NCBI RefSeq assembly: GCF_056746865.1
Contig: NZ_CM163382.1
Strand: one strand, 5' to 3'
Length of the DNA: 64,000 bases
Positions 9,238 to 34,207 of this stretch are shown here, piece after piece (within the stretch, counting starts at the first letter, position 1; the number at the start of each line of letters is the position of its first letter). The position numbers and the translations under genes were made by a program. Below the pieces are notes generated by a model. The model did not search any database, was not told the DNA's origin, and worked only from the letters and a program-made list of their open reading frames with translations.

Positions 9238-9340
<103 letters not shown>

Positions 9341-9345
<5 letters not shown>

Positions 9346-29035: not shown

Positions 29036-29677
29036 TTATTCAAAGAACTGACTTATTTTCGCTTTCAATATATCGATGGCGATGCGGTTTTTCCCGCCGC
29101 GCGGCACGATAATGTCCGCATATTGTTTAGAAGGCTCAATGAATTGCAGGAACATCGGACGCACGGTTTTTTGATATTGCGCCATCACTGAATCCATTGA
29201 ACGCCCACGCTCGTTAACGTCACGCTTGATGCGGCGCATCAGGCAGATATCCAGCGGGGTATCAACGAAAATTGAGAAGTTAAGTTCGTCACGCAAACGC
29301 GCATCCGTTAGCAGCAAAATGCCTTCGAGAATGATGACTTTCTTCGGCTCAACCGTCACCGTTTCTTTCATACGCGTATGTTCAACATAGCTGTAAACCG
29401 GCAGGTCAATGGCCGAGCCGCGTTTCAACGCTTGTAAATGCTCAAGCAACAGGCTGTGATCCATCGCGCTGGGATGGTCGTAGTTGGTCTTAACGCGTTC
29501 TTCCATCGACAGATGGCTTTGATCTTTGTAATAGCAGTCTTCGGGAATTACGCCGATGTGTTCATCACCGACTTGCTCACGTAATTCACGATAAAGGGTA
29601 CTGGCAATAAGACTCTTGCCGGAAGCCGATGCGCCAGCGATACCGATAATGACGCACTGATGAGACTGATCAGTCAT
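29036..29677 (-). CDS. udk: uridine/cytidine kinase Udk (213 aa)
   Basis: ORF track frame 29036..29740; start placed at ATG giving [23 protein letters not shown] (Walker A). Confidence 0.92.
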
Positions 29678-29994: not shown

Positions 29995-32900
29995 ATGAGC
30001 AAACAATCACAGCATGTATTAATTGCCCTGCCCCACCCGCTGCTTCACCTGGTCAGTTTAGGTTTAGTCTCGTTTATCTTTACCCTTTTCTCGCTTGAGC
30101 TTTCGCAGTTTGGCACCCAACTCGCCCCACTGTGGTTCCCGACGTCCATCATGATGGTGGCGTTTTATCGCCATGCCGGGCGTATGTGGCCGGGGATTGC
30201 GCTGAGCTGCTCACTGGGAAATATCGCCGCATCCATCCTGCTTTTTTCCACCAGCTCGCTGAACATGACCTGGACGACCATCAATATTGTTGAAGCCGTG
30301 GTCGGGGCAGTGCTACTGCGTAAATTGCTGCCGTGGTATAACCCATTGCAAAATCTGGCTGACTGGCTGCGTCTGGCACTCGGCAGCGCCATTGTTCCGC
30401 CTCTGTTGGGGGGTGTTCTGGTTATCCTGCTGACGCCCGGAGACGATCCTCTCAGGGCATTTTTGATATGGGTACTGTCAGAATCCATCGGCGCACTGGC
30501 ACTGGTGCCGCTGGGGTTGTTATTTAAACCACACTATCTGCTGCGCCATCGCAACCCACGGTTGCTTTTTGAGTCGCTGCTCACGTTAGCCATCACACTG
30601 ACGTTAAGCTGGCTTTCGATGCTGTATCTGCCGTGGCCTTTTACTTTCATTATTGTGCTGTTGATGTGGAGCGCCGTGCGCCTGCCACGAATGGAAGCCT
30701 TTTTGATCTTCCTTACCACGGTGATGATGGTGTCACTGATGATGGCCGCGGATCCCTCCCTGCTTGCTACGCCGCGTACATACCTGATGAGCCATATGCC
30801 GTGGCTACCGTTTTTGCTGATCCTGCTGCCCGCCAACATCATGACCATGGTGATGTATGCCTTTCGTGCGGAACGCAAACACATTTCCGAAAGCGAAACC
30901 CGCTTTCGGAACGCGATGGAATATTCCGCTATCGGTATGGCGTTAGTGGGCACCGAGGGACAATGGCTGCAATCCAACAAAGCACTCTGCCAGTTTCTCG
31001 GTTACAGTCAGGAAGAGCTGCGCGGACTCACCTTTCAGCAACTGACCTGGCCGGAGGATCTCAATAAAGATCTGCAACAGGTTGAAAAGCTGATCAGCGG
31101 TGAAATAAACACCTATTCAATGGAAAAACGCTACTACAACCGCAATGGCGATGTTGTCTGGGCGTTGCTTGCCGTCTCACTGGTGCGCCACACGGATGGC
31201 ACGCCGCTCTATTTTATCGCTCAGATTGAAGACATTAACGAGCTAAAACGCACCGAACAGGTGAATCAGCAACTGATGGAGCGCATCACGCTGGCTAACG
31301 AAGCGGGCGGGATTGGCATCTGGGAGTGGGAGCTTAAGCCGAATATTTTTAGCTGGGATAAGCGGATGTTCGAGCTGTATGAAATTCCTCCGCATATCAA
31401 ACCGAACTGGCAGGTGTGGTACGAGTGCGTGCTGCCGGAAGATCGCCAGCATGCCGAAAAAGTGATTCGTGATTCGTTGCAATCACGCTCTCCCTTTAAA
31501 CTGGAATTTCGCATTACCGTGAAAGACGGCATTCGCCATATCCGCGCCCTCGCTAACCGGGTACTGAATAAAGAAGGCGAAGTCGAACGCCTGCTCGGCA
31601 TTAATATGGATATGACCGAGGTAAAACAGCTTAACGAGGCATTGTTTCAGGAAAAAGAGCGCCTGCACATTACGCTGGATTCCATCGGCGAAGCCGTGGT
31701 CTGTATTGATATGGCAATGAAAATTACCTTTATGAATCCGGTGGCGGAGAAGATGAGCGGCTGGACGCAGGAAGAAGCGTTAGGTGTTCCACTCCTGACG
31801 GTGTTGCATATTACTTTTGGCGACAACGGACCATTAATGGAGAACATTTACAGTGCCGACACCTCACGTTCCGCGATTGAACAAGATGTGGTGTTGCACT
31901 GCCGAAGCGGCGGCAGCTACGACGTGCATTACAGTATTACGCCGTTAAGTACTCTGGACGGCAGCAATATTGGTTCGGTTCTGGTGATTCAGGACGTCAC
32001 CGAATCGCGCAAAATGCTGCGCCAGCTGAGCTACAGCGCCTCCCATGATGCACTGACGCATCTCGCCAATCGCGCCAGTTTTGAGAAGCAACTACGCATC
32101 CTGCTGCAAACGGTAAACAGTACACATCAGCGACATGCACTGGTGTTTATCGATCTTGATCGCTTTAAAGCGGTGAATGACAGCGCCGGGCACGCCGCTG
32201 GCGACGCTTTACTGCGCGAACTGGCGTCATTGATGCTGAGTATGCTGCGCTCCAGCGACGTGCTGGCGCGACTCGGTGGCGATGAATTTGGTCTGCTGCT
32301 GCCAGATTGTAATGTCGAAAGTGCGCGTTTTATCGCTACACGCATTATCAGCGCCGTGAATGACTATCACTTTATCTGGGAAGGACGTGTACATCGGGTA
32401 GGTGCCAGTGCCGGGATTACCTTGATTGATGACAACAATCATCAGGCGGCTGAAGTGATGTCGCAGGCTGATATCGCCTGTTATGCCTCCAAAAATGGTG
32501 GCCGGGGCCGGGTGACGATTTACGAACCGCAGCAAGCTGCCGCACATAGCGAACGGGCGGCGATGTCGCTTGATGAACAGTGGCGGATGATTAAAGAGAA
32601 TCAGTTGATGATGATCGCCCACGGTGTCGCTTCGCCGCGGATCCCGCAAGCGCGTAATTTGTGGCTGATTTCACTTAAGCTCTGGAGTTGCGAAGGCGAG
32701 ATTATTGATGAACAAACATTTCGTCGTAGCTTCAGCGATCCGGCACTTAGCCATGCTCTTGACCGACGGGTATTCCACGATTTTTTCCAGCAGGCCGCCA
32801 AAGCGGTTGCCAGTAAAGGTATAAGCATCGCCCTCCCGCTTTCCGTTGCCGGTTTGAGTAGCGCCACGCTGGTGAATGAACTAATTGAGCAGCTGGAAAA

Positions 32901-33312
32901 TAGCCCTCTACCACCACGGTTATTACATCTGATTATTCCGGCAGACGCGATTTTAGATCACGCAGAAAGCGTGCAAAAACTGCGGCTGGCGGGATGTCGG
33001 ATCGTATTCAGTCAGGTGGGCCGCGATCTGCAAATCTTCAACTCGCTGAAAGCGAATATGGCAGATTACCTGCTACTTGATGGTGAGTTATGCGCCAACG
33101 TGCAGGGAAATTTGATGGATGAGATGCTGATTACGATCATTCAGGGGCACGCTCAGCGGCTCGGGATGAAGACCATCGCCGGGCCAGTAGTTTTACCCCT
33201 GGTGATGGATACGCTTTCTGGCATCGGCGTCGATCTGATTTATGGCGATGTGATTGCCGATGCCCAACCGCTGGATTTGCTGGTGAATAGCAGTTATTTC
33301 GCGATTAACTGA
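29995..33312 (+). CDS. dgcE: diguanylate cyclase DgcE/YegE (membrane MASE1-like N-terminus, PAS repeats, GGDEF, degenerate EAL; 1105 aa)
   Basis: ORF track 1105 aa; GGDEF motif (RLGGDEFGLL) and multiple PAS-like segments. Confidence 0.92.
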   Translation: MSKQSQHVLIALPHPLLHLVSLGLVSFIFTLFSLELSQFGTQLAPLWFPTSIMMVAFYRHAGRMWPGIALSCSLGNIAASILLFSTSSLNMTWTTINIVEAVVGAVLLRKLLPWYNPLQNLADWLRLALGSAIVPPLLGGVLVILLTPGDDPLRAFLIWVLSESIGALALVPLGLLFKPHYLLRHRNPRLLFESLLTLAITLTLSWLSMLYLPWPFTFIIVLLMWSAVRLPRMEAFLIFLTTVMMVSLMMAADPSLLATPRTYLMSHMPWLPFLLILLPANIMTMVMYAFRAERKHISESETRFRNAMEYSAIGMALVGTEGQWLQSNKALCQFLGYSQEELRGLTFQQLTWPEDLNKDLQQVEKLISGEINTYSMEKRYYNRNGDVVWALLAVSLVRHTDGTPLYFIAQIEDINELKRTEQVNQQLMERITLANEAGGIGIWEWELKPNIFSWDKRMFELYEIPPHIKPNWQVWYECVLPEDRQHAEKVIRDSLQSRSPFKLEFRITVKDGIRHIRALANRVLNKEGEVERLLGINMDMTEVKQLNEALFQEKERLHITLDSIGEAVVCIDMAMKITFMNPVAEKMSGWTQEEALGVPLLTVLHITFGDNGPLMENIYSADTSRSAIEQDVVLHCRSGGSYDVHYSITPLSTLDGSNIGSVLVIQDVTESRKMLRQLSYSASHDALTHLANRASFEKQLRILLQTVNSTHQRHALVFIDLDRFKAVNDSAGHAAGDALLRELASLMLSMLRSSDVLARLGGDEFGLLLPDCNVESARFIATRIISAVNDYHFIWEGRVHRVGASAGITLIDDNNHQAAEVMSQADIACYASKNGGRGRVTIYEPQQAAAHSERAAMSLDEQWRMIKENQLMMIAHGVASPRIPQARNLWLISLKLWSCEGEIIDEQTFRRSFSDPALSHALDRRVFHDFFQQAAKAVASKGISIALPLSVAGLSSATLVNELIEQLENSPLPPRLLHLIIPADAILDHAESVQKLRLAGCRIVFSQVGRDLQIFNSLKANMADYLLLDGELCANVQGNLMDEMLITIIQGHAQRLGMKTIAGPVVLPLVMDTLSGIGVDLIYGDVIADAQPLDLLVNSSYFAIN

Positions 33313-33328
33313 GGCGTGCTTCCCCATC

Positions 33329-33353
33329 GCCTGATGCGGCGTATCAGGCCTAC
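33329..33353. repeat. REP element (gcctgatgcggcgtatcaggcctac) in the dgcE-alkA convergent gap, overlapping the alkA stop codon
   Basis: REP-like palindrome read directly. Confidence 0.45.
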
Positions 33354-34207
33354 AATTCGTCCGTTCCGTCTGGTTGCCAGCCTTCCGTATACCAGATATG
33401 CAACAGCGCATAAGAACGCCAGGGCTTCCAGCGTTCGGCATAACGGCGGATTTGTGCCGGTGTCATTCCCGGAAATCGCTGTTTAATCAGATAATCATCC
33501 GGCAGGAAAACATCTTTCGCCTGCCAGCCACGTAAGGCGAAATAATTCGCCGTCCAGCGCCCGATACCCGGAAAAGTTTGCAGCGTTTTCATCGCTTGCT
33601 CTACGTCGCCCGGAATTGTCATTGGTAAGGTGCCCTCCAGCGCCGCATTTGCCAGATTAATCAGCGCCTCTGCCCGTTTCAACGGCATACCTAACGCTTT
33701 TAATGCCTGCGGGTCGGCTGCTGCCAGCCGCTGAGGCGTGGGGAAGCAGACATAATCCGGAAAATCATCCAGCCGTTCGCCATAAAGCTGTGCCACTCTG
33801 GCGGTCAATTTTGCCGCCATCGCCACGCTCACCAGTTGGCCTAAAATCGCCCGCACGCCCTGCTCAAAAGCATCAACACAACCAGGTAAACGCAATCCGG
33901 GCCGCGCCGCGCCTAACTTGCCCAACGCACCGTTAACAATCTGCGGGTTACATTGCAGATCAAACAGGCGGCTCATTTTCGCCAGACACTCTGCGGCAAC
34001 AGGTTCTAAACCTGCACTTAAATTTATGTGCAGAGTATGGCGGGCTATATCCGGAATAGCAGTCACCACGCCGCGATATTCGCCCACCGCCAGACTACGG
34101 GCATAATAATCGTCAGCGACCGTTTCCACACCGTTCACCGCACGGGCGGCGAGAAATCCCAACATCCACGACCAGTCATACGGCGGCTGCCAGTTCAGGG
34201 TATACAT
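33350..34207 (-). CDS. alkA: 3-methyladenine DNA glycosylase II AlkA (285 codons here)
   Basis: ORF track 285 aa beginning MYTLNWQPPYDWSWMLGF; HhH-GPD glycosylase. Confidence 0.9.
   Translation of the reverse strand: MYTLNWQPPYDWSWMLGFLAARAVNGVETVADDYYARSLAVGEYRGVVTAIPDIARHTLHINLSAGLEPVAAECLAKMSRLFDLQCNPQIVNGALGKLGAARPGLRLPGCVDAFEQGVRAILGQLVSVAMAAKLTARVAQLYGERLDDFPDYVCFPTPQRLAAADPQALKALGMPLKRAEALINLANAALEGTLPMTIPGDVEQAMKTLQTFPGIGRWTANYFALRGWQAKDVFLPDDYLIKQRFPGMTPAQIRRYAERWKPWRSYALLHIWYTEGWQPDGTDEL

Follow-up and report, generated by a model that had tools for sequence, protein, structure and literature searches.

Organization of the dgcE-alkA region

The window, which is the whole 64,000-nucleotide stretch of DNA that we analyzed, contains the convergent genes dgcE and alkA (Table 1). 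The two genes are separated by 37 bp (33313-33349), made up of a 16-nt spacer and then a 21-nt palindrome. The original prediction placed a REP element in this gap, filling 38 bp and overlapping the alkA stop codon. A REP does lie in the gap and does overlap the stop, which is contained in its CTAC/GTAG tail at 33350-33353; the gap is one of 37 bp, and the REP occupies just 21 of these because the first 16 bp are a non-REP spacer. The spacer has an alternative haplotype on the dgcE side, GGGAGCGTTTGCCCATT, in strains SE11, B and CX15.

On the plus strand, the alkA stop codon TAG appears as CTA (33350-33352). The G of the REP's GTAG head completes the TTG codon of Leu285 and the remaining three bases are the stop codon; reading across the stop in the alkA sense gives G-TAG-GCCTGATACGCCGCATCAGGC. 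The open reading frame coordinates bear out the predicted alkA frame of 285 codons, convergent with dgcE and ending in ...EGWQPDGTDEL (HIWYTEGWQPDGTDEL).

Table 1. Features at the convergent ends of dgcE and alkA, in window coordinates.
Feature	Position	Strand or location	Basis
dgcE, diguanylate cyclase gene convergent with alkA	29995..33312	+	RefSeq names dgcE in an identical locus
dgcE stop codon, TGA	33310..33312	+	Sequence and ORF coordinates
Non-REP spacer, 16 nt, GGCGTGCTTCCCCATC	33313..33328	Between dgcE stop and REP	Identical in K-12
Shortened REP palindrome, remnant of REP1 of the K-12 BIME	33329..33349	-	Arms, K-12 alignment, head-motif enrichment, folding
CTAC (+), the GTAG head of the REP on the alkA-sense strand	33350..33353	-	Read from sequence
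alkA codons 281-285, GGA ACG GAC GAA TTG (G T D E L)	33353..33367	-	Former BIME linker, translated here, non-coding in K-12
Deletion junction (51 bp missing compared with the K-12-type allele)	33367..33368	.	Sequence comparison
alkA, DNA-3-methyladenine glycosylase 2, 285-aa allele	33350..34207	-	ORF, RefSeq, PDB alignment

The palindrome is a shortened REP

The palindrome, GCCTGATGCG-g-CGTATCAGGC, has two arms of 10 nt (33329-33338 and 33340-33349) that are 90% complementary, and the REP stem is reduced to 7 bp (GCCTGAT/ATCAGGC). We take the head and stem, GCCTGAT...ATCAGGC, to be those of a y-type REP. The palindrome is not a random occurrence, because the REP head motif GCCKGATGCGRCG is found in 10 copies in the 64-kb window compared to 0.68 expected, and because in the alignment K-12 carries a full-length REP (REP1) at the same position. 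The same two observations indicate that the element follows a consensus common to many genomic copies. The 21-mer is an imperfect palindrome predicted to fold into a stem-loop at -8.7 kcal/mol (z = -2.8), with a GTAG on the minus strand at its foot. In head motif, stem and the presence of GTAG on one strand, it matches the REP/BIME sequences of E. coli (PU; y, z1 and z2; the substrates of TnpAREP/RAYT). The GTAG tetranucleotide is conserved in REPs and is required for binding and cleavage by TnpAREP (PMC3333891).

In contrast to a typical E. coli REP of about 36 nt, the element in the window is 25 nt long including GTAG. The central 11 nt, comprising the hairpin tip and upper stem, are absent between 33341 and 33342; the missing bases are CTAACGCGTCT on the plus strand, and the alignment finds them in K-12, B, CX15 and all outgroups. 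With the upper stem gone, there is no full-length hairpin of about 35 nt with the internal stem mismatch used by TnpAREP, and the stem-mismatch context that TnpAREP requires is altered. Because these 11 nt and the upper stem are missing, the element is best called a REP remnant rather than an intact REP. The head-motif enrichment and the K-12 position thus uphold the predicted REP identity, as a shortened 25-nt remnant and not as a full copy.

A BIME consists of an inverted pair of REPs with a linker, and only a single REP is left in the window; the locus is, judging from its sequence, best called a BIME remnant. In K-12, REP1 forms a short-linker BIME with an inverted REP between the convergent genes. 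The window REP lies at the same position, and differs from the paired K-12 REPs in being single and in sharing four bases with the alkA coding sequence: the 21-nt palindrome itself lies between the genes, and the GTAG head covers the final base of codon 285 plus the stop. In the REPIN concept of Bertels and Rainey, REP singlets are reportedly decayed remnants of REP doublets. The pair in K-12 and the lone degraded REP in the window, after loss of its partner, are similar to this. Unlike generic singlet decay, the loss in the window also took the stop codon and recoded the protein tail. The shortened element (mini-REP) is probably an immobile remnant, too short to be a good substrate for TnpAREP.

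Two deletions relative to K-12

In K-12 MG1655, the alkA coding sequence is 849 nt (282 aa, RefSeq), and the gap to dgcE is 108 bp and contains a two-REP BIME. In RefSeq records of the type found in the window (short type), alkA is 858 nt and the gap is 37 bp. The length of 282 aa that the original prediction gave for K-12 AlkA, compared to 285 here, is correct both for the RefSeq coding sequence and for the 282-aa chains of PDB 1diz and 1mpg. On the plus strand, the K-12 gap consists of the 16-nt spacer, REP1 (GCCTGATGCGACGCTAACGCGTCTTATCATGCCTAC), a 16-nt linker, the inverted REP2 (AGGCCGGATAAGGCGCTCGCACCGCATCCGGCG) and ACCAACG, and ends in TCA, the reverse complement of the alkA TGA stop.

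Alignment of the window with K-12 revealed two missing segments. The larger, of 51 bp, comprises REP2 with its short flanks, including about 8 nt between REP2 and the alkA stop, together with the TGA stop itself and codons E281 and A282. The smaller is the 11 bp from the tip of REP1. The 51-bp junction at 33367/33368 has a positional ambiguity of 1 nt and a microhomology of just 1 nt. In the alkA sense, K-12 reads CCA GAC GAA GCA TGA and the window reads CCA GAC GGA ACG GAC GAA TTG TAG. Since the original stop was deleted with the 51 bp, translation crosses the former linker (codons 281-285) and ends at the TAG in the GTAG of REP1. K-12 does not show the identical C-terminus and REP position that would have refuted the original prediction. 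Of the two causes proposed there for the recoded last residues, variation at the 3' end is correct, in the form of a structural change of the BIME. A REP insertion has the wrong polarity: compared with the five non-coli Escherichia lineages sampled (below), the window has lost REP2 and the stop, as well as the tip of REP1.

What was observed directly is the anatomy of the locus, its homology with the K-12 arrangement, how frequent the two alleles are and which form the outgroups carry (the last two below). We consider it likely that the feature is the decayed remnant of a genus-wide two-REP BIME between dgcE and alkA of Escherichia, produced by the 51-bp and 11-bp losses. The ancestral arrangement, kept in K-12, would be ...P-D-E-A-TGA, about 8 nt, inverted REP2, the 16-nt linker, REP1, the 16-nt spacer and the dgcE stop. 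An illegitimate deletion of 51 bp, with 1 nt of microhomology, would have removed codons 281 and 282, the TGA, and REP2 with its short flanks, and a separate deletion of 11 bp would have removed the hairpin tip of REP1. The alkA frame would then have acquired five codons of former linker (G-T-D-E-L) and the TAG of the conserved GTAG of REP1.

Three other routes to the junction were considered and rejected. Excision by TnpAREP is unsupported, as the deletion ends do not fall at its C|T cleavage sites (known from PMC3333891): the nearest GGCC|T is 3-4 nt from a deletion end, and the end on the alkA side is without CT. A 60-bp deletion combined with a 9-bp duplication needs three extra substitutions, and leaves unexplained a motif found in linker context in strain SCPM-O-B-8794 (below). 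Slipped mispairing between 'TTC' repeats was set aside as well: these are not in register with each other, and only 1 nt of microhomology is real.

Frequency of the short and long alleles

A stretch of 301 bp around the site was found in 5407 of the 5426 complete E. coli genomes, in several length classes. The window-type junction (56-nt query) was present in 2265 of the 5426 (about 42%), all matching the query at 90% identity or more, and the K-12-type junction (66-nt query) was present in 3034. In every short-type RefSeq record that we inspected, the 858-nt coding sequence was annotated as normal alkA. The 285-aa allele is common and not strain-specific.

BIME decay of this kind is ordinary, and its product here is common, with annotations in thousands of genomes. 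Its biological weight is limited: a 285-aa AlkA is known as normal in RefSeq, and variation in BIME length between strains is well documented. It does provide a caution that protein lengths in K-12 are not the species norm.

The AlkA C-terminus

The window AlkA aligned with PDB 1diz/1mpg (282 aa) over residues 1-280 (E = 5.8e-190), a full-length homology to a structurally characterized enzyme that agrees with the RefSeq product name in identical loci. The window and K-12 proteins are collinear through D280, with eight scattered substitutions in residues 1-280; the whole aligned fold of K-12 AlkA lies within these residues and is near-identical in the window protein. The difference is at the end, where K-12 AlkA has ...WQPDEA and the window protein has GTDEL in place of the last two residues, EA.

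Among Enterobacteriaceae, AlkA ranges from 279 to 290 aa, with unrelated sequences after EGWxP. Citrobacter, Enterobacter and Lelliottia have no REP at the locus, and their alkA encodes 289-290 aa ending in ...WQPSVDGEIAGVE. In Citrobacter and Enterobacter, the gene pair and its orientation are the same as in the window and the AlkA tail is likewise set by downstream DNA. Unlike in the window, alkA and dgcE overlap convergently there (by 33 bp in C. youngae and 36 bp in E. cloacae), and the tail, SVDGEIAGVE, is the antisense of the dgcE C-terminus. The block specific to Escherichia, which is the BIME with its short flanks, has the conserved Pro279 codon directly on one side and the dgcE stop on the other. 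Compared with Citrobacter and Enterobacter, insertion of the BIME apparently did recode the AlkA tail once, in the ancestor of Escherichia.

Even within the short allele the tail varies, being DGTDEL or DGTDKL (E284K). The tail evidently is under little constraint, with a sequence that appears to be a by-product of the DNA downstream. Because the sequence after EGWxP is hypervariable across the family, its recoding was probably neutral for the enzyme; the frequency of 42% on diverse backgrounds is also compatible with selection. The locus is a worked example of how repeats behind a gene repeatedly rewrite a dispensable protein tail, the source of the tail being antisense dgcE in Citrobacter and Enterobacter, the flank of the BIME in Escherichia, and the linker plus the GTAG of a REP in 42% of E. 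coli.

Predicted folding and possible effects on expression

The predicted hairpin energies were -8.7 kcal/mol for the mini-REP, -13.9 kcal/mol for K-12 REP1 and -18.6 kcal/mol for K-12 REP2. The 141-nt BIME region of K-12 folded at about -57 to -58 kcal/mol (z = -2.7 and -5.0). The corresponding 76-nt region of the window was unremarkable (z = -0.95 and +0.47), and its minimum-energy fold did not include the REP hairpin. There was no intrinsic terminator or promoter found in 33100-33600, and no Rfam family at E ≤ 1 in 33150-33550.

REPs located less than 16 nt from a stop codon have been reported to lower translation via ribosome stalling (Liang et al. 2015, as described in PMC12306157). The distance from stop to REP is 0 nt in the window and 8 nt in K-12, both within the limit of 15 nt or less given in PMC12306157. 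The text and supplements of PMC12306157 that were examined make no mention of alkA. Like the stop-proximal REPs of Liang, Rudd and Deutscher (2015), for example at nrdAB, as related in PMC12306157, the window hairpin starts directly after the stop. Unlike those tied to stalling in that account, it is weak (-8.7 kcal/mol) and is unused in the minimum-energy fold of the 76-nt region. REPs between convergent genes have also been associated with differences in expression, and bidirectional termination and the blocking of decay have been suggested as their roles (bioRxiv 10.64898/2026.03.23.713779). Because the short allele has lost most of the predicted structure, any REP-dependent protection of the 3' end or stalling of ribosomes at the alkA stop would be expected to be weaker than in K-12.

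These considerations bear on whether the short allele could be adaptive. The mini-REP at the stop, the change from TGA to TAG and the loss of the strong BIME hairpin might alter AlkA output, through stability of the mRNA 3' end or through stalling with tmRNA tagging, or the new tail might alter the protein, with selection keeping the frequency high. The occurrence of the allele in 42% of genomes with diverse flanking backgrounds fits this idea, as do the effects on translation attributed to stop-proximal REPs in PMC12306157 and the expression differences tied to REPs between convergent genes. In both alleles a REP lies 15 nt or less from the stop, and yet the hairpins differ about two-fold in strength. 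Weighing against selection are the hypervariability of the tail across the family and the E284K variation within the short allele, and no selection is required for two alleles to coexist at intermediate frequencies in a species that recombines. On balance, we think that an adaptive short allele is unlikely, and we favor neutral decay of the BIME. If the alleles differ in AlkA expression, they would make a natural pair with which to test the proposed effect on translation of a REP near a stop.

Polarity of the change

We scanned genomes representative of species and extracted the 3' ends of alkA. E. albertii, E. whittamii, Escherichia sp. E1V33, 'E. coli' E69 and SCPM-O-B-8794 all have a 282-aa AlkA and a TGA stop. 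REP2 is present, complete or partly deleted, in all five of these non-coli lineages, upstream of the linker and REP1. Within E. coli, strains Nissle 1917, 81009, O157:H7 Z1816, K-12 and B are of the long type; we take these to represent phylogroups B2, E and A. Strain SE11, presumably of phylogroup B1, is of the short type. Among the lineages sampled, the short form was seen within E. coli only. Since all five sampled non-coli Escherichia lineages are long with REP2, parsimony over these few outgroup genomes and the handful of named E. coli strains indicates that the long, 282-aa form is most likely ancestral and the 285-aa form most likely a derived deletion within E. coli.

With the opposite polarity, the single-REP, 285-aa form would be ancestral, and the K-12 form would be the result of another REP entering alkA at its 3' end and supplying a new stop. 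REPs and BIMEs do proliferate, and their copy number per locus differs between strains (PMC3333891). In addition, the sequence CCTGAC-ACGGACGAAT that follows the REP2 remnant in SCPM-O-B-8794 resembles the alkA end of the window, CCAGACGGAACGGACGAAT. An insertion has to be set against the presence of REP2 in all five non-coli lineages and in the E. coli strains that we take to be of phylogroups B2, E and A, and against the confinement of the short form to E. coli. Moreover, the 51 bp are not a clean REP unit, as they include 17 nt of non-REP sequence with codons and a stop that are common to E. albertii and E. coli, and every outgroup has internal REP1 sequence that the short allele lacks. We regard insertion as very unlikely and loss from a two-REP ancestor as the better account.

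The linker of the short allele

The linker retained in the window, GGAACGGACGAATTG, has 4 differences in about 13 positions from GGAATGAGCGATTTG, the linker found in every long E. coli allele and in most outgroups. This is far above the 2-4% divergence of the flanks. The motif ACGGACGAAT was otherwise found in SCPM-O-B-8794 only, in linker context with a full-length REP1, and E69 carries one of the four changes. The linkers form a graded series from K-12 (GAATGAGCGATTTGTAG) through E69 (GAATGAGCGAATTGTAG) and the window (GAACGGACGAATTGTAG) to SCPM-O-B-8794 (ACACGGACGAATGGTAG), which hints that the block in the short allele may be related to sequences of cryptic clades. The four changes create GACGAA, the same as codons D280-E281 of K-12, and this match may be a coincidence.

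A direct progenitor, meaning a long allele with the window linker, was not detected among the 5426 E. coli genomes by a distant-mode search with a hypothetical 48-nt query. The best matches to this query were orthologous long BIMEs with 4 mismatches, which were the 4 linker differences. An exact-pattern scan of metagenome contigs gave no match to the progenitor pattern, and no E. coli genome covered at least 80% of a query for the arrangement in SCPM-O-B-8794. The sole metagenome match to that arrangement was in an unrelated high-GC contig, and we discarded it as a chance match. We also discarded an ectopic donor of the linker: there is no other copy of the linker in the window, and no better-matching BIME elsewhere in E. 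coli genomes. The linker could have been imported from a divergent Escherichia lineage, could be an old polymorphism, or could have changed after the deletion.

A more elaborate possibility is that the short allele is a haplotype block that came from a cryptic Escherichia lineage and has stayed near 40% because the weakened REP on the stop and the lost BIME hairpin change AlkA output by tmRNA-dependent stalling or 3'-end stability. If true, the block would show in nature how the decay of a REP can tune a DNA-repair gene's expression. We think this quite unlikely.

Other indels in the BIME and the spread of the short allele

Comparison of about 20 alleles indicated that this BIME is prone to indels, and BIME content at a locus is documented to vary between strains (PMC3333891). 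Strain 81009 has a 3-bp deletion in REP2, B and strain 113 have a 9-bp deletion in the 3' arm of REP2, and E69 and SCPM-O-B-8794 have lost one arm of REP2. In CX15, there is an 8-bp tandem duplication of CTACAAAT that doubles the GTAG. The largest change was in Escherichia sp. MOD1-EC7003, in which a deletion of about 528 bp extends from the BIME linker into alkA, with the junction after CCTACAAATCGC; an intact REP1 is fused to the interior of alkA, and the protein is truncated at about 121-128 aa.

Two annotated changes in dgcE were seen among these genomes. In strain 113 (NZ_CP028680.1, a 5.45-Mb cattle isolate), dgcE is annotated as frameshifted. In 'E. coli' ET5 (NZ_CP101014.1), dgcE is without about 260 bp at its 3' end, the breakpoint adjoins the BIME, and the gene is annotated as a partial pseudogene. 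The locus in ET5 is 81-87% identical to that of K-12, and the genome may be that of a non-coli Escherichia species.

Five distinct short alleles, from seven sequences including the window and strain CFSAN061770, have one compound signature: the 51-bp junction, the 11-bp deletion in REP1, exact to within one base, and four substitutions in the linker. The mini-palindrome exists in four variants, and it is point changes there that distinguish these alleles. The haplotypes of the flanking 110-120 bp did not sort by allele type into one clade; those of short alleles were shuffled with those of long ones. Both haplotypes of the spacer on the dgcE side occur with short and with long forms. Over 1.9 kb, the window has 71 mismatches to SE11, which is short, and 66 to K-12, which is long. 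The simplest reading of these patterns is a single origin followed by spread through homologous recombination.

The short form might instead have arisen several times, by recurrent independent deletions at a hairpin hotspot. The indels listed above, with deletions of 3, 9, 11, 51 and 528 bp and a duplication of 8 bp among about 20 alleles, show how readily this BIME changes, and the short alleles do occur on both spacer haplotypes. Every sampled short allele nevertheless has the entire signature, linker substitutions included, and all 2265 genomes fit the 56-nt junction query at the identity given above. We consider recurrent deletion highly improbable and retain a single origin. A sequencing or assembly artefact, or a mutation private to the strain, for which the sole pointer was the discrepancy with K-12, is refuted by the presence of the junction in 2265 independent complete genomes and by the 100% identity of the window locus over 1.9 kb with CFSAN061770.

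Other observations

Two further REP-like sequences in the window are near or within gene ends or coding sequence. In the BIME cluster between cpsG and cpsB (9239-9343), the last unit is a half-REP (9327-9339) located 1 nt before the stop codon of cpsB (9341-9343, minus strand; a 478-aa ORF), making it a second truncated REP that abuts a gene end. The length of the cpsG-cpsB locus varies among E. coli genomes, with spans of about 213, 237, 301 and 389 bp. Within the coding sequence of udk, at 29224-29244, a REP-like palindrome of 21 nt, GCTTGATGCGGCGCATCAGGC (minus strand, GCCTGATGCGCCGCATCAAGC), spans the codons for L-M-R-R-I-K. It has 1 mismatch to the mini-REP pattern, compared to 0.00 such occurrences expected in shuffles, and is probably a coincidence of codon choice, though a striking one.

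Enterobacterial alkA was also encountered under unexpected names. A 449-bp contig assigned to Terrisporobacter mayombei (coverage 0.87) was 100% identical to E. coli, and alkA was present in the assembly of 'Chryseobacterium sp. 18061'. Both cases are most likely due to contamination or mislabelling.
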